Counted from the stretch's first letter, positions 3,521-59,498 are shown. The stretch is DNA of 64,000 nt from a virus (IMGVR_UViG_3300036820_000005:32001-96000), one strand, 5' to 3'. The notes: generated by a model from the letters alone, not told the origin. Program-made: numbers and translations.

Positions 3521-4146
3521 TGGCCGAGGACGCGACGGGCGGGCTGTCCGAGGACAGCGACCCGAAGAAGGCGTGCTCCAAGTGCGGTGTCCCGAAGCCG
3601 TTGACGGACTACTACCGCATGGCCAGTTCGAGCGATGGTCGCCGTCCGGACTGCAAGAGCTGTATTTCGGCGGCCAGGTCAACTCCCGAGGGCCGGGGAA
3701 AGCGTGCTCGCTCTGTGCGAGAGGCGCGGCACCGCAAATGGGCAGAGACCGGCTACCAGCCCAGGAAACCATCGGGGCTGACGTCAGCTGAGCAGCAGCG
3801 GCTACGCCGCGCCAGGCCGGGAGCGGAGGTTGCCAACCGTCAGAATGAGGCGCGGAAGCGCGACAAGATGCGAAAGCGCGTATTCGATCATTACGGCTGG
3901 TCATGTGCATGCTGCGGGTCTACTAAGCGGCTGACAATCGACCACATCGACGGCACCGGCGGTGAGCACCGCAAGGAGCTGTTCGGTCGGCAGCTCGCTG
4001 GTTGGCACTTCTACCGCTGGCTGATCCGCCACGGCTTCCCTGACGGCTACCAGACCCTCTGCTTCCCCTGCAACCTGAGCAAGCGCGACGGCGACCGATG
4101 CCGGCTGAACCACCGGCCCAACCGAAAGGAGCCGGCATGTCCGTGA
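3520..4146 (+). CDS. HNH endonuclease with N-terminal zinc ribbon
   Basis: CSKC..CKSC; CACCG..LTIDHIDG..QTLCFPCN. Confidence 0.85.
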   Translation: MAEDATGGLSEDSDPKKACSKCGVPKPLTDYYRMASSSDGRRPDCKSCISAARSTPEGRGKRARSVREARHRKWAETGYQPRKPSGLTSAEQQRLRRARPGAEVANRQNEARKRDKMRKRVFDHYGWSCACCGSTKRLTIDHIDGTGGEHRKELFGRQLAGWHFYRWLIRHGFPDGYQTLCFPCNLSKRDGDRCRLNHRPNRKEPACP

Positions 4147-39890: not shown

Positions 39891-41423
39891 GTGGCAGTGG
39901 TAGCGGTCAGCGCGTGGGAGTATGCGGCCCGCCAGTTCGAGCCGAAACCCCGCACGTACGTTTCCCCGCTCGCGCTCGCAAAGCACCTCGACCCGCGGAC
40001 CGGGACCAGCGCGGCGCTGAGGCTCATCGACCAGGCCCTCGTCGCCCTAGCCGACGGCGACACCCCCGAGAACGCCCTCCTGGTCACGATCCCGCCGCAG
40101 GAGGCCAAGAGCACGACCATCGTGCGCCGGTTCCCCGAATGGCTGCTCGACAACGACCCAGCCTGCCGGATCGCCATCGCCAGCTACGAGCTCGACACTG
40201 CCGTCCGGTGGGGCCGCGACATCCGCCAGGACATCCAGCAGTCCGACGGGAAGCTCGACATCCCGTTCCGCCCCGACGCCACCGCGATGGCCAGGTGGGA
40301 GACACCCCAGGGCGGCGGCGTCTACTGTGTCGGCGTCGGCGGCCCGCTGACCGGCCGCGCCGTCGACGTGCTCCTGGTCGACGACCCCGTCAAGGACCGC
40401 GCCGAGGCCGAATCGGCGAAGATCCGGCAGAACATCTGGGACTGGTGGGAGTCCGTCGCCCTGACCCGCCTCGCACCCGGCGCCCGCACGGTGCTCGTCA
40501 TGACCCGCTGGCACGAGGACGACCTGGCCGGCCGGATCCTGTCCCGGCCAAGCCCGCTGAAATGGCGGGTCCTGAAGATCCCCGCCATCGCCGAAGCCGC
40601 CGACCCGCTCGGCCGCCGGCCAGGCGAGGAACTGGTCTCGGTCCGCGGCCGGGAAGCCGGCTACTTCCTGAACCTCCGCGCGACGATGAGCCCGTACACG
40701 TTCTCCTCGATCTACCAGCAGTCCCCCACCGCGGCGGAAGGGAACTTCTTCCGCAGGGCCACGTTCAGGTACTGGCGGCCGGCCGTGTCGTGGTCGGACG
40801 GCCGGGTCCGCCTCGACCTCGAAGGCCGCATCGTCACCCTGCCGGACTGCTGGCGGTTCGGCACCGTCGACGTCGCCGCCAGCGTCAAGACCAGCGCCGA
40901 CTACACGGTCATCAGCATGTGGGCGGTGTCGCCGGACGGAGACCTGATCCTCCTCGACCGGGCCCGCCAGCAGGTCGCGGAACACGACCACTTCGCCCTC
41001 GCCCAGGGCCTGTTCGACTCGTGGGGGGAATGCCAGCTGTACGTCGAGCGGCATTTCTTCGCCACCACCCTGGTAACTGACGCGCAGGCCGCCAACATCC
41101 CCGTTGCCGAGGTCGTCGCCGACACCGACAAGGTCACGCGCGCCATCCCCGCCGCCGGCCGGGTCCACGCGGGCCGGGTGTGGTTCCCCGCAGAGGCGTC
41201 CTGGCTGGACGAGTGGACCGACGAGCTGGCCTCCTTCCCGAACGGCACGCACGACGACCAGGTCGACACGCTCTCCTACGCGGCCAGGGTCCAGTCGGCC
41301 GAATGGACGCCGCCGCGGCCGCCGCCCCGGCCAGGCGTCGACCCGCACGAACGGGCCATCAACATCGCCGCACGCTCGGCGACAGGCGAAGACGGGTTCG
41401 ACCCGATGACCGCCCAATGGTAA
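39891..41423 (+). CDS. terL: Terminase large subunit
   Basis: PPQEAKS Walker A variant, LLVDDP Walker B, MTRWHEDDLAG, FPNGTHDDQVD. Confidence 0.92.
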   Translation: MAVVAVSAWEYAARQFEPKPRTYVSPLALAKHLDPRTGTSAALRLIDQALVALADGDTPENALLVTIPPQEAKSTTIVRRFPEWLLDNDPACRIAIASYELDTAVRWGRDIRQDIQQSDGKLDIPFRPDATAMARWETPQGGGVYCVGVGGPLTGRAVDVLLVDDPVKDRAEAESAKIRQNIWDWWESVALTRLAPGARTVLVMTRWHEDDLAGRILSRPSPLKWRVLKIPAIAEAADPLGRRPGEELVSVRGREAGYFLNLRATMSPYTFSSIYQQSPTAAEGNFFRRATFRYWRPAVSWSDGRVRLDLEGRIVTLPDCWRFGTVDVAASVKTSADYTVISMWAVSPDGDLILLDRARQQVAEHDHFALAQGLFDSWGECQLYVERHFFATTLVTDAQAANIPVAEVVADTDKVTRAIPAAGRVHAGRVWFPAEASWLDEWTDELASFPNGTHDDQVDTLSYAARVQSAEWTPPRPPPRPGVDPHERAINIAARSATGEDGFDPMTAQW

Positions 41424-42917: not shown

Positions 42918-43273
42918 TCGCCGTCGACCGCATCTGGCAGCCGGAAGAGAGCCAGTGGCGGTTTGACCTCCTGGTCGGTGGGGCCCACGCGGGGCTGGCC
43001 GAGGTGATCGTCCTGGACCACGATGTGCGGCTCGCCGACCTGTGGATCCGGCCGGCCTACCGCGGCCGCGGCTTTGCCCGGCACCTCCTGGCCGACGTGC
43101 TCGCTGCGATGGGCGACCGGGACATGACCCTGTCCGCCGAGCCGTTCGAGTACCCAGACCAGCCGCCAGGCCCGGCGCTGACCGGAGGCCAGCTCGCCGC
43201 CTGGTACGCCCGGCACGGCTTCCAGCCGACCGGCACCGGCCACATGATGCACCGACCCAAGGAGACCGCGTGA
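42914..43273 (+). CDS. GNAT N-acetyltransferase
   Basis: LWIRPAYRGRGFARHLL; L.AWYARHGF. Confidence 0.85.
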   Translation: MIAVDRIWQPEESQWRFDLLVGGAHAGLAEVIVLDHDVRLADLWIRPAYRGRGFARHLLADVLAAMGDRDMTLSAEPFEYPDQPPGPALTGGQLAAWYARHGFQPTGTGHMMHRPKETA

Positions 43274-43993: not shown

Positions 43994-46204
43994 ATGGCGC
44001 AGCAGCAGTTCAGCGGCGCCCCCACCTCCGACATGGGCACCCCGGACCTGTACTGGGGCACCTGGGGCCAGGGACTCCTGTCCGAATGGTGGGAGACCGC
44101 CCCGCAGCTGATCTGGCCCGAAGCCGTCATCACCTACGGGCGGATGCGTCACGACCCCCAGTGCAAAGGGGTCCTGTCCGCGTACAAGCTGCCGCTGATG
44201 CGCGCCACCTGGGCGATCGACCCGGCAGGCTGCCGCGACGAGGTAGTCCAGCTCTGCTCAGAAGACCTGGACCTGCCGATCCTCGGCAACGCCGACGACG
44301 ACTCGTGGAACGCCGACAACGACGGCCAGCCTGCCCGGACCAGCGGCGTGACGTGGAAACGGCACCTGTCCCAGGTGCTGCAGTACCTCGAGTTCGGCCA
44401 CATGATCTTCGAGCGCAAATACCAGATCGTCGGCGACCAGCTGCGGCTGCTCGCGCTCGGCGAGCGGATGCCGTGGACCGTGGCCAGGATCATGCTCAAC
44501 CAGGACGCCACGATCAACCACCTCGTGCAGTACATGCAGGAAAAGCCGATCCCGGCGAACCGGCTGGTCTGGTACGCGCACGAGCACGAGGGCGCGAACT
44601 GGGCCGGGTTCTCCCTGCTGCGGTCGGCGTTCGCCCCGTGGCTGCTGAAGCACGAATGCTGGCGGGTGCTGGCCACGTCGATCCGCCGGTTCGGGATGGG
44701 CGTCCCTACCGTCGAAGCGCCGCCCGGCGCGACGCAGAACCAGGTGCAGCAGGCCAGCAGCCTCGCCTCCAGCATGCGGGTCGGCGACATGTCCGGTGTC
44801 GGCCTGCCCAGCGGGTTCAAGTTCAGCCTGGCCGGGCTGACAGGGAACGTGCCGGACTCGCTGGCGTTCATCCAGTACCTCGACGGGCAGATCGCCAAGC
44901 AGGCCCTGGCCGGGCTGATGGAGCTCGGCGACACCCAGAACGGCAGCAGGGCGCTCGGCGAGACGTTCCTTGACCTGTTCCTCCTGTCCCTGCAGGGCGT
45001 CGCCGACGAGATCGCGACCGCGGCGACGGTCGGCTGGCCGCAGATGCCCGGCATCCTCGCCGACCTCGTGGCCTGGAACTGGGGCGCCGACGAGCCAGTC
45101 CCGAAAATCGTCTGCACCGACGTAGGCGAAAACTACGAGGTCTCCGCCCAGGCGATCGACCAGCTGGTGCAGCACGGCGCACTCGACCCCGACCCGACCC
45201 TGGACGCCTGGATCCGCAAGGCATGGCGGCTGCCCGCCCGCGACCCCGACGCGCCGTCCAGCCTCCCGCCGAAGCCGGGCCCGCCCCTCGGGCCGGAGCC
45301 GGGGCCCGGCGGCGGGCCCGCCGGAGACCAGGCCCCCGCCAGCCAGGGACAGGCAGGAACGGCAGCGAGCCGCCGCTCAGGCAGGCACCGGGCCGCCGCG
45401 CCGGGCGGGTTCCGCCGCCAGCCGACACAGATCGAGGCGGCCTCCGGGTTCGACCCCGCCATGGTCCGGCAGGAATGGCTCGACGCCCGGACCGCCCTGA
45501 TCGCCTCATACAAGCTGCAGGTCCTCGGCGGCCTGCAAGACGACCTCGCCGGGCAGGTTGAGGCCAGCGTCCAGGCCGGGCAGCTCGGCAAGCTCGCCTC
45601 GCTGACCGTCGACACGGACGCGGCCGCGACGCTGATCGGCGGGGCGATGCTCGGCCTGGCCCGCACCGCGGCGAACCGGGCGCGGGCCGAAGCCGCGTCG
45701 CAAGGCGTCAAGATCCCCGCCGCCGGGGTGGCACTGCCCGAGGCGAAGATCGGCCAGGTCGCCGCGGCCAGGGCCGGGCTGCTCGGCTCCTGGTGGGCGC
45801 AGCAGGCCAGCGGCAAGGCCCTCCAGGTGTCCGCGGCGGCCGCCCACCCGCCCCTTCCGGTTCGGCTGCCCGCCGACATCGCCGACCTGATCCGCGAGTT
45901 CCTCGAGGGGCTGTCCGACGCCAGCCTTACCGACCAGCTCGGCGCCGCGCTCACCGCAGGCCAGAACGTCGGCCGGATCTCCGTCATGGAAGCCGCGGCC
46001 GCGTCGGGCGGGACCGCCCAGTACGTGGCCACGGAGATCGAGGACGACAACACCTGCAAGCCCTGCCAGGACGAGGACCAGCGCGTGTTCGCCAGCCTCG
46101 CCGGCGCGCAGGCCGCCTACCCGTCCGGCGGCTATATCGGCTGCCTCGGCGGGATGCGGTGCCGCGGCACGGTCATCGCCTACTGGGGAGGGCTGACGCC
46201 ATGA
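43994..46204 (+). CDS. Portal protein (DUF935-like) fused to a MuF-like minor head domain
   Basis: G.SLLR.A..PWLLK..RRFGMGVP, GSRALGET; C-terminal DDNTCKPC..CLGGMRCRG. Confidence 0.85.
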   Translation: MAQQQFSGAPTSDMGTPDLYWGTWGQGLLSEWWETAPQLIWPEAVITYGRMRHDPQCKGVLSAYKLPLMRATWAIDPAGCRDEVVQLCSEDLDLPILGNADDDSWNADNDGQPARTSGVTWKRHLSQVLQYLEFGHMIFERKYQIVGDQLRLLALGERMPWTVARIMLNQDATINHLVQYMQEKPIPANRLVWYAHEHEGANWAGFSLLRSAFAPWLLKHECWRVLATSIRRFGMGVPTVEAPPGATQNQVQQASSLASSMRVGDMSGVGLPSGFKFSLAGLTGNVPDSLAFIQYLDGQIAKQALAGLMELGDTQNGSRALGETFLDLFLLSLQGVADEIATAATVGWPQMPGILADLVAWNWGADEPVPKIVCTDVGENYEVSAQAIDQLVQHGALDPDPTLDAWIRKAWRLPARDPDAPSSLPPKPGPPLGPEPGPGGGPAGDQAPASQGQAGTAASRRSGRHRAAAPGGFRRQPTQIEAASGFDPAMVRQEWLDARTALIASYKLQVLGGLQDDLAGQVEASVQAGQLGKLASLTVDTDAAATLIGGAMLGLARTAANRARAEAASQGVKIPAAGVALPEAKIGQVAAARAGLLGSWWAQQASGKALQVSAAAAHPPLPVRLPADIADLIREFLEGLSDASLTDQLGAALTAGQNVGRISVMEAAAASGGTAQYVATEIEDDNTCKPCQDEDQRVFASLAGAQAAYPSGGYIGCLGGMRCRGTVIAYWGGLTP

Positions 46205-48699: not shown

Positions 48700-49665
48700 A
48701 TGTCTGGTTACACCTACCCGCCGCTCCCGCCGACGTTGTCGGGTGATCTGGAGACCATCTCCCGGTTCCTCCAGTCGCCGACCCAGATCCGCAGGCGCCT
48801 CCGCGACTACGTGGACCTGAGGTTCATCAGCGACCAGATCCTGACGAACCGGTGGAACTCGACCGGCGGCGCGGCCCTGTACGAGCAGACCGAACCTTTC
48901 GTCACGGATAGGCCCGTTCAGTCGGTTGCCCCCGGGTCCGAGTACCCGCAGGCAGACGCCCCGACCGGCACCGGCGGCATCGCGGCCGTCCAGAAGTGGG
49001 GCCAGATGGTCCCGCTCACCGACGAGCAGATCGACAGGAACGTTTACGCAGGTCAGATAGTTGACCGGACCTTGCAGAAGGTGGTCAACTCGGTGATCGC
49101 CCAGGTCGACAACATCACGATGTCGGCCGTCATGAGCACCGTCTCCCTCGAGGTCTCCCCGACCGCGGCATGGGACGGGTCCGGCGATGCGGCGCCGACG
49201 ATCCTGCGGGACGTCCTGCTCGGCGTCCGGCAGATCACCGGCCAGCTGCAGGGCTACAACCCGGACACGCTGCTGGTCACCGACGTCATGTACGCCTACA
49301 TGATGTCCGACCTCACCGTGTCGAACCTGCTCAAGCGCGAGGACAGCACCAACCCGATCTACACCGGTGAGATCGAGATCCTGTCCGGGCTGACGCTGGT
49401 CCACTCGCCGCACGCCCCGAACGACCCGCTGATCCTGGACTCGGCCGAGTTCGGCGGAATGGCCGACGAGATCTCCGGCTCCCCGGGCTGGGCGATCTCC
49501 GACCTGGCCGTGCAGATCAAGTCGATCCGCAACGACCGCCGCGACCGCTGGGAACTCCAGGGCAGAAGGATCACGGTCCCGATCATCCAGAACCCGAACT
49601 CGGCCTGCGCGATCCTTGGCGCGTCCGGGTCCGAGGGCGGCGGCGAAGGGAGCTTCTCCGTATGA
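48700..49665 (+). CDS. Major capsid protein
   Basis: YTYPP..P, VAPGSEYP, KWG...TDE, GY.PDTL; position. Confidence 0.85.
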   Translation: MSGYTYPPLPPTLSGDLETISRFLQSPTQIRRRLRDYVDLRFISDQILTNRWNSTGGAALYEQTEPFVTDRPVQSVAPGSEYPQADAPTGTGGIAAVQKWGQMVPLTDEQIDRNVYAGQIVDRTLQKVVNSVIAQVDNITMSAVMSTVSLEVSPTAAWDGSGDAAPTILRDVLLGVRQITGQLQGYNPDTLLVTDVMYAYMMSDLTVSNLLKREDSTNPIYTGEIEILSGLTLVHSPHAPNDPLILDSAEFGGMADEISGSPGWAISDLAVQIKSIRNDRRDRWELQGRRITVPIIQNPNSACAILGASGSEGGGEGSFSV

Positions 49666-51567: not shown

Positions 51568-52731
51568 ATGCTCAGAAGGCTCACCGGCACGATGGCGCTC
51601 ACGCTGCTCGCAGGGCTTGGCCTGGCGGTCAGCGGGAACGTCGCCGCCGCAACGGCGGCGTCAGCCGGCACTCCGCTGGTCAGCGCGACGACCAGCATCG
51701 CGAACGACCCCGATACCGGCGGCAACGGCACCTGGGCCGACGACGACTTCACCAGGACGCTGACGGTCAGCACCGACCCGACGAGCAGCGACTGCGCGGC
51801 ACTCGCCGGCTGGACCGCCTCGGCCGACGTCTGCTACTCGGCGGCCATCACGGACGCCGGGACCGCGAACACGGTCGTCAACGCCTTCCAGCCCAACCAG
51901 GGCAGCAGCACCCTGGCGGACCAGACCGGCGACAAGATCACCGGCCCGTCCGAAGGGGTGCCGTTCACCGGCACCGCCAGCTACCAGTTCTACGCGCCAG
52001 CCGGCGGCATCCCCTCCGCCGCGGACGTCCCCGCCACGCTGAACGACAACTTCGCGAAGCCTTCCGGAGCTGCGAGCACGTCGGAGTGGTACCTGGAGGC
52101 GTTCGCCGCCACCGGCCGCACAGGTGTCTACACGGGCGGCATCGGGAACTGGTCGTGGACCTACGCCGATTCCTGCGAGTCGTGGACCGACGCGAACACG
52201 AACAGCCAGGGGCAGTCGACGCCGCTGTCGGACGACGGGAACATCACCGGCAAGGCCTGCGCGACCCCCGCCGGGTTCAGCGGCGGCCAGGGCGACGTGA
52301 TCAACCGGTTCGGCAACGGCCTCGACGTCCGCGACCAGCGGCCCGCGGTGAACAACCTGATCATCGCCTACCCGGTGACGGGCACCGATCCGGCCGTCCA
52401 GTTCGACGTGATCCCGGTCGGGGACGGCTGGGCGTTCGAGTACGCGCCGCTCAAGGTCGACTCGGGGCTGTGCGTGTCCGAGGCAGTCGGCAGTGAGCCT
52501 GCCGGATCCAACCCGACCGGCCTGGTACTGCGGGACTGCCTGTGGAACAAGTTCCAGCGGTTCACCCTCAGTGTCGGCGCGAACGGCAGCTTCCAGCTCG
52601 TCAACGCGGCCACCGGCCAGACGATCCAGCCGAACGGCACCCGCGCCCAGATCACCGGGGAAAACACGCTGAGCAACGTGGCCGGGTCGTGGTGGGCGTG
52701 GAACACGCCCGGGTCGGCACCCGCCGCGTAA
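51568..52731 (+). CDS. Secreted protein with C-terminal ricin-B/beta-trefoil-like lectin domain
   Basis: Signal peptide MLRRLTG..LLAGLGLAV..ASA; GLDV, GLCV..L..C..N.FQRF..QLVN.ATG. Confidence 0.65.
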   Translation: MLRRLTGTMALTLLAGLGLAVSGNVAAATAASAGTPLVSATTSIANDPDTGGNGTWADDDFTRTLTVSTDPTSSDCAALAGWTASADVCYSAAITDAGTANTVVNAFQPNQGSSTLADQTGDKITGPSEGVPFTGTASYQFYAPAGGIPSAADVPATLNDNFAKPSGAASTSEWYLEAFAATGRTGVYTGGIGNWSWTYADSCESWTDANTNSQGQSTPLSDDGNITGKACATPAGFSGGQGDVINRFGNGLDVRDQRPAVNNLIIAYPVTGTDPAVQFDVIPVGDGWAFEYAPLKVDSGLCVSEAVGSEPAGSNPTGLVLRDCLWNKFQRFTLSVGANGSFQLVNAATGQTIQPNGTRAQITGENTLSNVAGSWWAWNTPGSAPAA

Positions 52732-52745
52732 GACAAGAAGACCTG

Positions 52746-53291
52746 ATGCCTGCCCGCTGGGTTGAGACGCGGATGATCCCGCTCGACGAGCTGACCCCGT
52801 TCCCGGGTAACGCCCGCCGAGGCCTCATCCCGAAGATCCAGGATTCGCTCCGGCGGAACGGGCAGTACAGGTCGCTGGTGGTCCGCCAGGACGGCGTAGC
52901 ACTCGTCGTCCTGGCGGGCAACCACACCATGCAAGCCCTCGCAGCCGAGGGGCACGCTGAGGCCCGCTGCGACGTGATCGAATGCACGGACCAGGAAGCC
53001 CGCCGGATCAACCTGGCCGACAACCGGCTATCCGACCTCGCCACCGACGACAAGCAGGCCCTCGCCGACCTGCTCGCCGAGATCGACGACCTCGAAGGCG
53101 CCGGGTACACCGCCAAAGACGTCGAGAAGCTCACCGGCACCCCGCCGGGTCCTGAACCCGGCGAAGCGCCCGTAGACGACCTGGAGACGGTGTGGGGCGT
53201 GATCATCGAATGCGACACCGAAGCGCAGCAGGACGCCCTGATCGCCCGGTTCACCGGCCAGGGCCTCGACGTCCAGCCGCTGACGGGATGA
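52746..53291 (+). CDS. ParB-like N-terminal domain protein 1
   Basis: LTPFPGNARRG, SL.RNGQYRSLVV, VLAGNHT, LADNRLSDLA. Confidence 0.85.
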   Translation: MPARWVETRMIPLDELTPFPGNARRGLIPKIQDSLRRNGQYRSLVVRQDGVALVVLAGNHTMQALAAEGHAEARCDVIECTDQEARRINLADNRLSDLATDDKQALADLLAEIDDLEGAGYTAKDVEKLTGTPPGPEPGEAPVDDLETVWGVIIECDTEAQQDALIARFTGQGLDVQPLTG

Positions 53292-53295
53292 CCTG

Positions 53296-53820
53296 ATGCC
53301 CGCCCGGTGGATCGACACCCGGGAACTGCCGATCGACGAGCTGACCCCGTTCCCCGGCAACGCCCGCCGCGGGAACGTCGACCTGATCCGCCAGTCGGTC
53401 CGCCGCAACGGCCAGTACCGGTCCCTCGTCGTCCGCGCCGACCGGGGCGCCTTCGTAGTCCTGGCCGGGAACCACACGATGCGTGCGCTCGCCGCCGAGG
53501 GCCACACGACTGCCCGGTGCGAGCTGATCGAATGCACCGACCAGGAAGCGAGGCGGATCAACCTGGTCGACAACCGCCTGTCCGACCTCGCCACGGACGA
53601 CAAGACAGCGCTCGCCGCCCTGCTCGCCCTGCTCGACGGGGACCTGGAAGGCACCGGTTACACCGCGAAGGACGCCGAGCTGATGAAACCGCAGAAAGGC
53701 GACACAGAGCTGTTCAGGCTCTACGGCGTGATCATCCGCGTCCCCGCCGAGGAGCAGCAGCTCCAGCTGCTCGAGCAGCTGTCCGGCGAGGGCCTGAACG
53801 TCCGCGCGCTGATCGCATGA
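53296..53820 (+). CDS. ParB-like N-terminal domain protein 2 (tandem paralog)
   Basis: Highly similar to the 52746 ORF. Confidence 0.85.
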   Translation: MPARWIDTRELPIDELTPFPGNARRGNVDLIRQSVRRNGQYRSLVVRADRGAFVVLAGNHTMRALAAEGHTTARCELIECTDQEARRINLVDNRLSDLATDDKTALAALLALLDGDLEGTGYTAKDAELMKPQKGDTELFRLYGVIIRVPAEEQQLQLLEQLSGEGLNVRALIA

Positions 53821-53835
53821 CCCGAGGAGAGCCCT

Positions 53836-54918
53836 GTGAAAGCTGACTTCACCCTGACCTGCCCGATCGAGAAGTCAGGGCGGGTGATGCAGCTCGCCTC
53901 ACTGTTCGACCTGCCCGTCGAGGCGAAGGCCAGCGTCCACGTGCAGGCGTCCCTGCCGGTCGAGGAACGCGACTGGAACGTCGGCCTGATCGTCGGCCCG
54001 TCCGGCGCCGGCAAGTCGTCGCTGGCCCGGCACCTGTGGCCCGGCCAGGTCGTGACCGGGTTCGACTGGCCCGACGGCCGGTCCCTGGTCGACGCGTTCC
54101 CCGCCAGCATCGGGATCCGCGACGTGACCGGCCTGCTGACCGCTGTCGGCCTCGGCTCCACGCCGACGTGGCTGCGGCCGTACTCGACCCTGTCGACCGG
54201 CGAAGCGTTCCGCGCGACCATCGCCCGCGCGCTGGCCGAAACCGGCGACCTGATCGTCGTCGACGAGTACACCAGCGTGGTAGACCGGCAGGTCGCCAAG
54301 GTCGCCTCCCACACGGTCCAGAAAGCGGTCAGGCGGGCCGGGCGGCAGCTCGTCGCGGTCACGTGCCACTACGACGTGGAGGAGTGGCTGCAGCCCGACT
54401 GGGTGTACGACGTGGCCGCCGCCGAGTTCCGCTGGAGGTCCGTTCAACCCCACCCAGAGCTCCACCTTGAGATCTACGAGAGCGGGAAAGCCCTCTGGCC
54501 CGTGTTTGCGCGCCATCACTATCTGAGCGGCGCCCTGTCCGGCGACGCGGAATGCTACGCCGGGTGGATCGACGGACGGCCGGTCGCGTTCACCTCGGCG
54601 ATCCCCTGGTCAGGCAAGACCAGCCCCGTGATGAAAGGGCACCGGCTGGTCGTCCTGCCCGACTACCAGGGCCTCGGGATCGGCGGCAGGCTCGACGACT
54701 GGCTCGGCCAGCTGCTCTACCGGCGGGGCCTGCGGTACCGGAACACGGTCGCCCACCCGCTGATGGTCCGGTTCTACTCCCGGTCCCCCAGGTGGCGGGC
54801 CACGGCGAAGCCGATGAGGCAGCTCGGCGCCAGCCACGACGGGCAACGCCACCAGTGGCAGAACCCGCGGCTGCTCGGCACCTGGACATTCGAGTACGTG
54901 CCCACGAGGGAGGGGTAA
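53836..54918 (+). CDS. ABC-type ATPase fused to a GNAT (Mom-like) acyltransferase
   Basis: GPSGAGKS, LSTGE, VVDEY, VTCH; FARHHYL, RLVVLPDYQGLGIG. Confidence 0.85.
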   Translation: MKADFTLTCPIEKSGRVMQLASLFDLPVEAKASVHVQASLPVEERDWNVGLIVGPSGAGKSSLARHLWPGQVVTGFDWPDGRSLVDAFPASIGIRDVTGLLTAVGLGSTPTWLRPYSTLSTGEAFRATIARALAETGDLIVVDEYTSVVDRQVAKVASHTVQKAVRRAGRQLVAVTCHYDVEEWLQPDWVYDVAAAEFRWRSVQPHPELHLEIYESGKALWPVFARHHYLSGALSGDAECYAGWIDGRPVAFTSAIPWSGKTSPVMKGHRLVVLPDYQGLGIGGRLDDWLGQLLYRRGLRYRNTVAHPLMVRFYSRSPRWRATAKPMRQLGASHDGQRHQWQNPRLLGTWTFEYVPTREG

Positions 54919-55280
54919 TGCTGAGGACCTGGGTGACCGCGAAGCTGCACGGGATCACCGTCACCGCCGCCAGCGTCGACTACCACGGGTCGGTGACCAT
55001 CGGCGCCGACCTGATGGACGCCGCCGGCATCGAGCACGGCGAGCAGGTCCACGTGGTGAACCTGTCGACCGGCGGCCGGTGGGTGACCTACGCCCTGCCC
55101 GGCCCCGAAGGCGTGTTCACGCTGAACGGCGGCGGCGCCCGCCTCGGCGTGCCCGGAGACAAATGCGTGGTCATGACGTTCGGCCTTGCCGAGCACGCGC
55201 CCGGCGCGGCTGTCGTGTTCTGCGGCGTCGGCAACGAGGCGATCGACCAGGCGTTCTACCCGGCCGGGCTGCCGCGGTGA
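54918..55280 (+). CDS. panD: Aspartate 1-decarboxylase (pyruvoyl)
   Basis: K9, H11, G24-S25 cleavage site, R54, T57-Y58, LNG..AR. Confidence 0.9.
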   Translation: MLRTWVTAKLHGITVTAASVDYHGSVTIGADLMDAAGIEHGEQVHVVNLSTGGRWVTYALPGPEGVFTLNGGGARLGVPGDKCVVMTFGLAEHAPGAAVVFCGVGNEAIDQAFYPAGLPR

Positions 55281-55981
55281 GAATCCTCGAACTCGGGTCA
55301 TACGTGGTCGTCGGGTACGCCGGCCTCCTGCTGGCCGAGCAAGGCCACCAGGTCACGAAATGGACCGCCAGCCACCCCGACCCGATCGAGGGCCTGCACC
55401 GCGGCCCGGAACTGTGGGCGTGGATCAACCACGGCAAGACGCTGACCGAACGGCACGCCGCCACCGTCGGAGACGCGCTCCTCGCAGACGAGTTTGACGC
55501 GGTGATCGATAACATCCGCGCCGACACGTGGGCGAAGTGGGGAGTCCGGCCGGGATGCCTGGCCGCCGCGCTCGACCTGACCTGGGTGTCGATGCGCGAC
55601 GACTTCGACGGCCGGTCCTTCGACGCGATCGCCCAGGCCCGCGCCTGGGGTGACCACCTCGGCTACCTCCCCGCATACCTCGGCGACACCACAGGCGGCC
55701 TGTGGCTCGCCTACAAGCTCCTGGCGGCCCCTCCAGGCCACCACATCCTCCGGCAGGCCGCATGCCTCGCCAAGCTCGTCGAGGGCGAGCTGGTCGTCCC
55801 GCCGCCGACCCCGCGGCAGGGGCCCGGCGGCGAACCGCCATGGGACCAGGCCGGCACCTACGGGCAGGACGGCGACGGCACACGGGTCTGGTACCGCGGC
55901 GCAGAGGTCCGGGAGCCGTTCCGTGACACGGAATGGCGGCGGACCAATTTGCGCCATTCCGGCGGCCGTTACGTCATCTGA
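55277..55981 (+). CDS. Family III CoA-transferase-like protein (CaiB/BaiF), short
   Basis: RILELGSYVV..YAGLLLAEQG..V.K, INHGK, DAVIDN.R, FDAIAQA. Confidence 0.75.
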   Translation: MRILELGSYVVVGYAGLLLAEQGHQVTKWTASHPDPIEGLHRGPELWAWINHGKTLTERHAATVGDALLADEFDAVIDNIRADTWAKWGVRPGCLAAALDLTWVSMRDDFDGRSFDAIAQARAWGDHLGYLPAYLGDTTGGLWLAYKLLAAPPGHHILRQAACLAKLVEGELVVPPPTPRQGPGGEPPWDQAGTYGQDGDGTRVWYRGAEVREPFRDTEWRRTNLRHSGGRYVI

Positions 55982-56503: not shown

Positions 56504-56968
56504 GTGAAGGTCCTGTCCGTACGCCAGCCGTGGGCTGGCGCCATCATGCTCGGCCTGAAGCCGGTCGAGAACCGCAGCTGGGAGCCATGGGAGAAGGTCG
56601 ACGGCGGAAGGGTGAAGTTCCGCGGCCGGCTGCTGATCCACGCGAGCGCCCGGCCCGACAGCGACGGCCCGCGGTTCATCGCCAGCCTCGGCATCCGAAT
56701 GCCGCATGACCTGCCGATGGGCGTCATCCTCGGCAGCGTCGAGCTGTACGACGTCGTGACCGATAGCCGGTCGCCGTGGGCCGAGCCCGGCCAGAAGCAC
56801 TGGCTGATGCGCGACCCGAAGCCGTGGCTGCGGCCGATCAAGGCGAACGGCGAGCTGGGCCTGTGGGAGTGGGACGCGGTCCCAGGCGGCGGGCCGGTCC
56901 AGGCCCGCCGTGACCCGCCTGCACCGCCGCCGGATCAGGGCGGCGTAGTGCCGGTCTGGACCGTCTGA
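56504..56968 (+). CDS. ASCH domain protein
   Basis: LSVRQPWA.AI..G.K.VENRSW..RG.LLIHA; G.LGLW. Confidence 0.88.
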   Translation: MKVLSVRQPWAGAIMLGLKPVENRSWEPWEKVDGGRVKFRGRLLIHASARPDSDGPRFIASLGIRMPHDLPMGVILGSVELYDVVTDSRSPWAEPGQKHWLMRDPKPWLRPIKANGELGLWEWDAVPGGGPVQARRDPPAPPPDQGGVVPVWTV

Positions 56969-58703: not shown

Positions 58704-58786
58704 CCTGCGAAAACCAGGTCTTTTCGGACTGCCCCTTATTGTCGTGTTCTACACTTATGCGATATAATTTCTACATAGTTGAAAAT
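58700..58786 (+). promoter_or_regulatory. Repeated promoter module, copy P6
   Basis: CTGACCTGCGAAAA; TTGTCG(58739)-N18-TATAAT(58763); TTCTAC at 58747 and 58769. Confidence 0.8.
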
Positions 58787-58883
58787 TTCCCGAGCCTGCG
58801 AGGAGACCAGAGATGCCCAGCAGCCAGGCCGGCACAATCCAACCCCCATCCGAGGGCGCCACGACCGAAAGGAGCACGCAGCA

Positions 58884-59498
58884 GTGACTGCTGGAACCGC
58901 TACCCGCCGTAAGCCGAGGCGCAAGGTCTCGGACGAGCGCGTCCAGGAGATCGAAGCCCGCCGGGCCGAGATCGAGGCCGCAGCCGAAGCCATAGATGAC
59001 ACCGAGCCGGATTTCGTGGCGTTCCTGGCCCGGTGGGGTGACCGGTACAACGAGAACAACCTGCGCCGCCTTTGGGTGCAGGCACCCCGCGCGACGTGCT
59101 TGCACAAGTTCCCGACGTGGCGGGGGATGGGCCGCCAGGTCCGCCGTGGCGAGACCGCGATCATGCTGATGCACCCGCGGACAGGAACCGACCCGGACAA
59201 GGTAAGCCCCGCGAACCCGACCGGCGAGGTGTTCTACGGCGCGTCATGGATGGCGCTGTTCGACTACGCCCAGACCGACCCGATCGGCGACTTCACCGAC
59301 CAGGCCGACCCGGACGCCGACCCGGCCTTGGTGGCTGAGGTAGCACGCCTGCGGAAAGCGGCACTCGCCGAGCATCCCGACGTCTCCGCCCCGAACACCG
59401 GTCCCACCGATAAGGCGTTCCTGGCCGCGTGTGAGAAGTTCACGGCTGCATGGAAGCGCTACGAGGACGCCAAGGCGCAGTTGAAGGGCGACCGCTAG
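58884..59498 (+). CDS. ArdC-like N-terminal ssDNA-binding domain plus J-domain-like C-terminus
   Basis: YNENN..L..Q.P.AT....F.TW..MGRQVRRGE.AI; LFDYAQT; RKAALAEHPD. Confidence 0.7.
   Translation: MTAGTATRRKPRRKVSDERVQEIEARRAEIEAAAEAIDDTEPDFVAFLARWGDRYNENNLRRLWVQAPRATCLHKFPTWRGMGRQVRRGETAIMLMHPRTGTDPDKVSPANPTGEVFYGASWMALFDYAQTDPIGDFTDQADPDADPALVAEVARLRKAALAEHPDVSAPNTGPTDKAFLAACEKFTAAWKRYEDAKAQLKGDR

Follow-up and report, generated by a model that had tools for sequence, protein, structure and literature searches.

The five-gene cassette

This report concerns a compact block of genes at positions 52746 to 55981 of IMGVR_UViG_3300036820_000005:32001-96000. This stretch of 64,000 nucleotides (nt), referred to here as the window, comprises bases 32001-96000 of a 111,056 bp IMG/VR virus record that is estimated to be 91% complete. 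The G+C content is ~70% across the whole window, relatives of the cassette were found in phages of Rhodococcus, Gordonia, Arthrobacter and Streptomyces, and we read the window as the DNA of an actinobacterial phage. The block encodes two ParB-like proteins (ParB1 and ParB2), an ABC-ATPase fused to a GNAT domain (ABC-GNAT), the pyruvoyl-dependent aspartate 1-decarboxylase PanD, and a very small family III coenzyme A (CoA) transferase that we call the mini-transferase. We propose, with a probability of roughly 0.4 for the statement as a whole, that the cassette is a phage nucleic-acid acylation module that carries its own acyl-donor supply. The genes and their motifs are as follows (lengths in amino acids, aa; E denotes the E-value and pI the isoelectric point):

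52746..53291, plus strand: ParB-like protein 1 (181 aa, pI 4.4; phrog_723, E 7e-37; no Pfam match)
53296..53820, plus strand: ParB-like protein 2 (174 aa; phrog_723, E 4e-39; Pfam ParB_N 17.3 bits, cut-off 26.3)
53836..54918, plus strand: ABC-ATPase::GNAT fusion (360 aa; phrog_11143, E 1.4e-98; ABC_tran and Acetyltransf_1)
53995..54021, plus strand: Walker A, GPSGAGKSS (G54, S56, G57, G59 and K60 invariant in 37 homologues)
54190..54213, plus strand: ABC signature, LSTGEAFR (L119, S120 and G122 invariant in 37 homologues)
54250..54267, plus strand: Walker B, LIVVDE (D143 and E144 invariant in 37 homologues)
54640..54684, plus strand: GNAT strand beta4 and CoA-pyrophosphate loop, HRLVVLPDYQGLGIG (motif A, Q-x-x-G-x-G; from the translation)
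54918..55280, plus strand: PanD, pyruvoyl-dependent aspartate 1-decarboxylase (120 aa; PF02261 98.5 bits, cut-off 25)
55277..55981, plus strand: mini family III CoA-transferase (234 aa; PF02515 24.5 bits, cut-off 23.3)
55682-55690, plus strand: candidate catalytic Asp137 in YLGDTTGG, aligned with D169 of E. coli Frc (ALGDSNTG)

A preliminary description of this DNA had reported five co-oriented and tightly packed genes, and the boundaries that we read from the sequence agree with it. Neighbouring genes abut or overlap, with a 4-nt gap between ParB1 and ParB2, a 15-nt gap between ParB2 and ABC-GNAT, a 1-nt overlap of the ABC-GNAT TAA with the PanD ATG (TAATG), and an overlap of the PanD TGA with the GTG of the mini-transferase (GTGA). 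No promoter-like or terminator-like site was returned within the five-gene block by a consensus scan. The PanD residues singled out in that description (K9, H11, G24|S25, R54 and Y58) are all present, in the form K9-L-H11, G24-S25 and R54-W-V-T57-Y58, and the HHYL and HRLVVLPDYQGLGIG motifs that it had noted in the ATPase-GNAT fusion occupy the expected places in the translation.

In PanD no variation was seen across 17 phage homologues at K9, H11, Y22, G24-S25, R54, T57 and Y58 or at the Asn of the NGG loop, and the closest solved relative is PanD from Mycobacterium tuberculosis (2c45; E 4e-22). Judged by these residues the enzyme is predicted to be catalytically intact. The Pfam threshold is passed, whereas the NCBIfam equivalog model TIGR00223 scores 73 bits, below its cut-off of 106, and we therefore treat the protein as a family member that is not certified as an equivalog.

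The AlphaFold2 (AF2) model of the fusion protein, with a predicted local distance difference test (pLDDT) of 88.6, consists of two domains, an ABC nucleotide-binding domain (NBD) from residue 1 to ~203 and a GNAT domain spanning residues ~209-357. The phrog_11143 match places residues 11-327 on profile positions 9-320 of 357, and the Pfam scores are 33 bits for ABC_tran and 28.6 bits for Acetyltransf_1. The H-loop, like Walker A, the signature, Walker B and GNAT motif A, is intact and conserved without change across the 37 homologues; in the GNAT domain the invariant positions are R270, V272, P275, D276, Q278, G279 and G281. When compared with known structures by VIA-align, residues 1-203 resemble EcfA/MetN-type transporter NBDs (Z ~15), in keeping with a Foldseek list filled by ABC transporter NBDs, and for residues 209-357 the best matches are small GNATs, IAA acetyltransferase, RimI and Ard1 among them (Z 15.3-14), many of which tie. 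A GNAT profile searched against the PDB retrieved generic GNATs alone, at E-values of at least 0.009, with NAT10 at an insignificant E 0.73.

For the mini-transferase the PF02515 match is marginal and covers residues 2-94 only, at the N-terminus; the same label has been precomputed on many of its ~250 homologues, and sequence matches in the PDB and Pfam are likewise limited to the N-terminal 95-107 residues. Family III enzymes (Rv3272, YfdE, Frc and CaiB) account for every Foldseek PDB match listed down to rank 50 (best E 2e-8, TM-score ~0.6 on the query). With these the protein shares an N-terminal Rossmann-like fold (Foldseek E 2e-8 to 1e-4) as well as the catalytic Asp and the preceding xxxxAQA motif. 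Neither Asp137 nor the FDxxAQA motif varies among 25 homologues, an alignment with E. coli Frc and YfdE places Frc D169 on this Asp, and the D169A CaiB and D175A Rv3272 entries among the Foldseek matches mark the same residue. A profile search of 1.84 billion cluster representatives recovered 31 at E<=1e-30 and scored canonical enzymes below 60 bits, and by this measure the mini-transferases are a small and sharply separate family.

Relative to canonical family III enzymes (~360-430 aa) the 234-residue protein has lost most of the small domain, the C-terminal half and with it the return to the large domain. The two-domain architecture of ~400 aa, with its small domain and glycine loop, is absent, and canonical enzymes align over the first ~150 positions only. 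The model is confident for residues 1-110 (pLDDT >90) and falls to 40-60 past residue 115, which together with the missing domains makes transferase activity uncertain. One could imagine that the protein is inactive as a transferase and acts instead as a truncated subunit that binds CoA or acyl-CoA, or as a racemase-like or regulatory partner of the ABC-GNAT, with PanD serving some other role; family III does include racemases, and one of these (2g04) is among the matches. We regard this as very unlikely given the invariance of FDxxAQA and of the Asp that aligns with Frc D169, the many further invariant residues in the C-terminal part of the 25 homologues, as a working active site would show, and the presence of a decarboxylase neighbour in phage and cellular contexts alike.

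A metagenomic protein of 404 aa (P0243) joins the ABC domain of an ABC-GNAT (residues 1-180, up to the H-loop) to a complete mini-transferase (residues 181-404), and both GNAT and PanD are missing. Such a protein could be a true ABC::transferase fusion, or else have arisen from a deletion or from faulty assembly.

Distribution of the cassette genes in viruses

The preliminary description had named a lack of co-occurrence of panD and the CaiB-type gene with ABC-GNAT genes in other phages as one outcome that would refute it, and the genes do co-occur. The mini-transferase set comprises 37 viral loci, 35 of which come with upstream DNA. An ABC-GNAT gene lies directly 5' in 35/35 of these (42-70% sequence identity range), with PanD between the two in 29/35 and with the mini-transferase abutting the ABC-GNAT gene in the others. 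ParB is found 5' of the ABC-GNAT gene in most loci that reach far enough upstream. Near-duplicate viral loci mean that these raw counts overstate independence; the non-redundant ABC-GNATs comprise 26 that are followed immediately by the transferase, of which 20 also have PanD, one second copy situated after a transferase, and 60 without. A single-sequence PanD scan of viral contigs returned nothing, and a PanD profile scan returned 43 viral loci, 32 of them in this module and the other 11 in unrelated low-G+C phages.

Relatives of the ABC-GNAT are encoded in at least 567 viral stretches, and both PanD and the mini-transferase are carried by 10 of the best 80 ABC-GNAT loci. In other ABC-GNAT loci the next genes are ASCH or terminase-like ones, and the module commonly sits just before terminase genes (terminases in both cases judged from N-terminal sequences alone). 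As most ABC-GNAT loci lack both genes, the PanD/mini-transferase pair is best described as an optional add-on; Gordonia phage Yago84 is an example of an actinophage with ParB and ABC-GNAT but neither of the two. The dependency runs one way: in viral contigs the transferase and this type of PanD always occur with an ABC-GNAT, and the ABC-GNAT mostly occurs without them. No other acid-activating enzyme was seen to replace PanD and the transferase in related ABC-GNAT loci, the downstream genes there being judged by their N-terminal sequences. When 89 ABC-GNATs were placed on a tree, all carriers fell within a single well-supported clade of 49 members. Non-carriers are mixed in among them, and at least 5 to 8 gains or losses are required to account for this pattern.

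Such gene adjacency might in principle reflect nothing but a shared moron insertion site, with PanD and the transferase making a small metabolite unrelated to the ABC-GNAT. The gap between the head and tail genes of the window phage does hold several unrelated cassettes, and marine phages carry PanD in quite another operon, together with an ATP-grasp ligase. The invariable presence of the ABC-GNAT directly upstream of the transferase, the overlapping start and stop codons, and the co-variation of GNAT residues with the transferase (described below) already disfavour this explanation, and we consider it highly improbable.

Among 50,697 deposited phage genomes the module was found in Rhodococcus phage Jace only (filed as Gordonia phage Jace). 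The relevant genes are gp85 (ParB), gp86, gp87 (PanD), gp88 and the convergent gp89. The product of gp88, annotated as a “hypothetical protein”, is a mini-transferase 59% identical to that of the window, and that of gp89, annotated as a helix-turn-helix (HTH) DNA binding protein, is homologous to an ASCH protein encoded in the window (40% over 131 aa; see below).

Outside the module PanD was found in viral contigs of low G+C content (~36%), where it follows a tail-fibre gene (Mtd_N) and precedes genes for a 195-aa protein of no family and an ATP-grasp ligase (L122, L126, L127, L128, L134, L138, L139, L147, L148, L150 and L154; PanD near position 4000). In some of these contigs dioxygenases (TauD or PhyH) and a radical SAM enzyme are also encoded. 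The operon is a second, unrelated phage use of beta-alanine.

We also considered whether the GNAT domain serves to activate the maturation of PanD, in the manner of PanZ/PanM (PMC3398536). This was set aside, as most ABC-GNATs have no PanD nearby, and it is further disfavoured in that PanD never occurs in the module without the mini-transferase.

Cellular mini-transferases and the GNAT residues that track the transferase

A scan of one genome per prokaryotic species gave nine mini-transferase loci. Three of the nine are prophage-like and have an ABC-GNAT gene 5' as in phages, and five share another neighbourhood, on the chromosomes of Salininema, Promicromonospora, two Streptomyces and Actinopolyspora (L156:3760-7262, L157:3558-7188, L158:3707-7192, L159:3798-7142 and L161:3574-7256). 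In this triad the upstream gene encodes a pyridoxal phosphate (PLP)-dependent decarboxylase resembling glutamate decarboxylase (GAD; TIGR01788, 286-352 bits, cut-off 380) and the downstream gene an aldehyde dehydrogenase of the aminobutyraldehyde-dehydrogenase-like kind (NF010000, 544-570 bits, cut-off 615); one triad locus has a WYL-domain regulator nearby. The transferases of the five triads group in a single clade (support 99), which is set among those phage copies that are closest to the one in the window. No mini-transferase was found in a sample of 400 further genomes from the same class as one Streptomyces carrier, so the gene is rare in cells.

Both neighbours in the triad yield an omega-amino acid, either gamma-aminobutyrate (GABA) or beta-alanine (from aspartate or 3-aminopropanal), and with the GAD-like enzyme directly 5' of the cellular copies a decarboxylase of a different fold holds the place that PanD has in the phages. 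CoA-transferase routes to beta-alanyl-CoA are known biochemistry, and CaiB acts on omega-trimethylammonium carboxylates, which are chemically close to beta-alanine and GABA. By analogy we take the triad as the best available evidence that the mini-transferase family activates an omega-amino acid made next door, and the triad itself looks like an undescribed cellular path from an omega-amino acid (GABA or beta-alanine) to a CoA thioester.

Within the clade of 49 ABC-GNATs we compared alignment columns between 27 carriers of the transferase and 21 non-carriers, and the three most discriminating columns all fall within the GNAT domain. Their positions in the window are listed below, with the placement on secondary structure taken from the AF2 model and the counts of non-carriers taken over all 60:

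54694-54696, plus strand: D287 (helix alpha3), D or E in 24/27 carriers vs 2/60 non-carriers
54742-54744, plus strand: N303 (strand beta5), N in 26/27 carriers vs 5/60 non-carriers
54775-54777, plus strand: Y314 (helix alpha4), Y in 26/27 carriers vs 1/60 non-carriers

In relatives that lack the transferase the residues found at these three positions include S/A, S/T and L/R, respectively. Five independent contrasts could be drawn on well-supported branches, and in these N303 changed in the same direction in 5/5 and Y314 and D/E287 in four to five, although with five pairs only a sign test cannot go below 0.06. The D/E-N-Y combination recurs in 7/7 further carriers that were not used to find the pattern, including two at only 43-44% identity and one from an alphaproteobacterial metagenome-assembled genome (MAG). 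In GNATs the catalytic base and acid are usually found on strand beta5 and helix alpha4, the elements that flank the thioester. On the model, an acidic and two polar side chains in this region would fit a donor with a free amino group; a protein-protein contact is a possible alternative role for the three residues.

Two observations on this signature may be added. Viral contigs L015-L020 and L025 (e.g. L015:878-4126) encode two ABC-GNATs that flank PanD and the transferase, and the second copy has A287 and H314, so that part of the D/E-N-Y signature is gone and the two ABC-GNATs may use different donors. The MAG, labelled Hyphomicrobium sp. (L162), has a mini-transferase and an ABC-GNAT with D-N-Y, separated by ~2 kb of small reverse-strand open reading frames, and no PanD; with this alphaproteobacterial carrier the add-on is not strictly limited to Actinobacteria.

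From these comparisons we consider it fairly probable that PanD and the transferase together supply the GNAT domain with an omega-aminoacyl-CoA. Several points, along with the uncertain activity of the transferase, speak against this conclusion. PanD is missing in 6/35 loci; ABC-GNATs as close as ~60-70% identity occur without PanD or the transferase, so that a switch of donor would have to rest on few residues; and the cellular context fits GABA as much as beta-alanine.

The first two of these points, and more generally the absence of both genes from most ABC-GNAT modules, would be accommodated if the ABC-GNAT used a common donor (acetyl-CoA) and PanD and the transferase were auxiliary metabolic genes that sustain the CoA/acyl-CoA pool, the former providing beta-alanine for pantothenate/CoA synthesis and the latter regenerating acetyl-CoA; YfdE-type family III enzymes are annotated as interconverting acetyl-CoA. 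We judge this to be decidedly unlikely for a number of reasons. PanC (PF02569) was not found in the whole 111-kb record, which bears out and extends the earlier remark that the window has no panC, while PanB was not searched for. Acyl transfer recycles CoA and does not consume it, PanD is wedged between the GNAT and transferase genes with overlapping start and stop codons, and the cellular transferase copies are flanked by two enzymes that make omega-amino acids. Moreover, a pure supply role does not predict changes in GNAT residues that go along with the transferase. Neither a thymidylate-synthase-like hydroxymethylase nor an N6/N4 methyltransferase was found in the phage genome, and with PanC also missing there is no sign of a 5-hydroxymethyl-deoxyuridine (5-hmdU)-type or pantothenate pathway.

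Proposed chemistry, the acceptor and known systems

In the scheme that we favour, PanD would convert L-aspartate to beta-alanine, the mini-transferase would transfer CoA from host acetyl- or succinyl-CoA onto beta-alanine to give beta-alanyl-CoA, and the GNAT domain, whose active-site region seems to be retuned (D/E287, N303 and Y314) whenever the transferase is present, would pass the beta-alanyl group to an amino group of the substrate. The ABC domain, as it binds and hydrolyses ATP, would act with the ParB-like partner(s) to engage this substrate, most likely a base of the phage DNA with an exocyclic amine, such as N4 of cytosine, after replication. The product would be a positively charged amino-acyl mark, which the ASCH protein could read or remove. 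We infer the chemical steps, the acceptor and the biological purpose from the comparisons given here. The mark put on the phage DNA would probably be amino-acyl rather than acetyl, because the two extra enzymes most likely make beta-alanyl-CoA. In its most specific form, that of an N-(beta-alanyl) base installed post-replication by an ATP-driven, ParB-partnered GNAT from a phage-made donor, with a minimal CoA-transferase class specific for omega-amino acids, the scheme is tentative and on balance somewhat unlikely.

A similar route, from aspartate through beta-alanine and beta-alanyl-CoA to the GNAT, was drawn in the preliminary description. The supply chain now gains comparative support from synteny, the conserved Asp, the cellular decarboxylase and the GNAT residues, and the remaining parts of that proposal (a DNA base as acceptor, action at the time of packaging and an anti-restriction purpose) are suggested by context only.

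The acceptor is the weakest link in this argument. If the donor is an omega-aminoacyl-CoA, we think DNA is the probable acceptor, and the ParB-like proteins are one reason for this. These tandem paralogues (66% identity; in ParB1 a predicted ParB/Srx N-terminal domain is followed by a small C-terminal domain) both match phrog_498, the N-terminal domain of phage DNA methyltransferases (ParB1 at E 4e-22), which suggests a ParB domain of the kind fused to such enzymes. In addition the module mostly appears beside packaging genes, the predicted GNAT domain is basic (pI 10.0), and an ASCH gene is a frequent neighbour, represented in the window by the following gene:

56504..56968, plus strand: putative ASCH-domain protein (154 aa; phrog_3193, E 4e-42)

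This protein matches the ASCH domain of ASC-1 at E 7e-7 by phmmer and scores 14 bits with Pfam ASCH (PF04266), below the cut-off of 21.2. The gene is co-oriented with the cassette and lies 520 nt 3' of it, and in many related loci it is convergent and adjacent; the protein is likely an accessory of the module. ASCH domains have a PUA-like fold that is tied to modified nucleic-acid bases.

Two precedents also argue for DNA by analogy. Phage DNA T-dioxygenases depend for their activity on a ParB-like partner that is encoded alongside them (O'Toole et al. 2026, PMC13229309), and gp48 of phage PaMx11 is a GNAT acetyltransferase that makes 5-acetylaminomethyl-dU in polymeric DNA (Lee et al., PMC8989533).

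The same beta-alanyl-CoA donor could also be spent on an acceptor other than DNA, either RNA (tRNA or rRNA, as with TmcA/NAT10, which pair an ATPase with a GNAT) or a protein, such as the ParB partner or one from the virion or the host, and several features of the proteins point this way. The structural neighbours of the GNAT domain in VIA-align are small-molecule and protein N-terminal acetyltransferases, among them the N-alpha-acetyltransferases RimI (Z 14.4) and Ard1/Naa10 (Z 13-14), with no nucleic-acid enzyme prominent among them. For the ABC domain the resemblance is to transporter or ABCF/ABCE-type NBDs, some of which act on ribosomes, and not to SMC/Rad50. The missing hydroxymethylase and methyltransferase, which would have hinted at some other route of DNA modification, count against DNA or are neutral. 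The ParB-like proteins are acidic, with no match to an HTH DNA-binding domain returned by a Pfam search, and ASCH domains occur in RNA contexts too. Set against the methyltransferase-type ParB domain, the usual position next to packaging genes, and the published cases of ParB-dependent base modification and of GNAT action on DNA, these features leave a non-DNA acceptor unlikely, though far from negligible, and DNA is the acceptor that we retain.

As to its setting, the cassette had been placed inside the head-tail module, and the flanking genes bear this out:

39891-41423: TerL, 5' of the cassette
43994-46204: portal protein, 5' of the cassette
48700-49665: major capsid protein, 5' of the cassette
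from 61036: neck/tail-completion gene, 3' of the cassette, followed by a gene for an Ig-domain protein
from 63672: start of the tape measure gene, 3' of the cassette

The gap between head and tail genes also holds ~9 kb of other non-structural genes. One of these (58779-59498) encodes a 239-aa protein with a weak match to the anti-restriction (ArdC-like) phrog_7245 (E 1e-4). Directly ahead of the cassette, with a 14-nt gap before ParB1, lies a gene (51568-52731) for a 387-aa protein that has an N-terminal signal-peptide-like stretch; it matches no family in Pfam or PHROG, and related loci lack it. Between the TerL and portal genes, at 42941-43126, lies the gene for another GNAT, this one a stand-alone protein (Acetyltransf_1, 28 bits).

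The ParB plus ABC-GNAT pair as such is widespread, its phrog_11143 family comprising more than 6000 proteins, with copies in phages of Actinobacteria, Bacteroidetes, Firmicutes and Proteobacteria. The window shares with it the ParB gene directly upstream and an ASCH gene nearby, and differs in the added PanD and mini-transferase, in the duplicated ParB, and in its location, which is between the head and tail genes and not immediately ahead of the terminase genes. Our literature search found no experimental test of this pair, nothing on a PanD/CoA-transferase add-on in this phage context, and nothing relevant on N4-acyl DNA with ParB or on COG2401.

Other systems share single features with the cassette. 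TmcA/NAT10 are ATP-dependent N4-acetylcytidine synthases of RNA; like the ABC-GNAT they couple an NTPase to a GNAT and they acylate the exocyclic amine of a base, but their ATPase is of the helicase P-loop type, their substrate is RNA, and NAT10 is not significantly matched by the GNAT profile, as noted above. Mu Mom is a stand-alone phage GNAT-fold DNA adenine modifier with an anti-restriction role, and has no ABC domain, ParB partner or CoA-transferase; our searches turned up no specific similarity to Mom, with which no direct comparison was made. PaMx11 gp48 is alike in being a phage GNAT that uses an acyl-CoA and acts on an amine of a DNA base. It is, however, a stand-alone enzyme whose target, a 5-aminomethyl group that stems from 5-hmdU, is installed beforehand, whereas the GNAT of the window is fused to an ABC-ATPase, its donor is probably not acetyl-CoA, and a hydroxymethylase was not found. 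The ParB-dependent T-dioxygenases differ in their TET/JBP dioxygenase fold and in their chemistry, and the ParB-like proteins of the window may play the same role. To this background our analysis adds an alignment that locates the catalytic Asp, counts that show synteny to run one way, the cellular triad and the GNAT signature that tracks the transferase.

The ParB plus ABC-GNAT pair is among the commonest phage gene pairs without an experimentally tested function. The variant described here names a likely donor, an omega-aminoacyl-CoA, along with three candidate specificity residues, and with a likely donor named an exact mass shift is predicted (+71.04 Da); Rhodococcus phage Jace, with gp85-gp89, is the only cultured carrier. 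If the proposal is correct the mark would to our knowledge be the first case of a DNA base modified with an amino-acyl (amide-linked, cationic) group, and we know of no earlier DNA hypermodification with a side chain that comes from a phage-made acyl-CoA. It would then represent a new chemical class of phage DNA hypermodification, with a bearing on restriction evasion, sequencing artefacts and enzymatic DNA labelling, and the mini-transferases would constitute a new minimal CoA-transferase family for omega-amino acids that is also used by some actinobacterial chromosomes.

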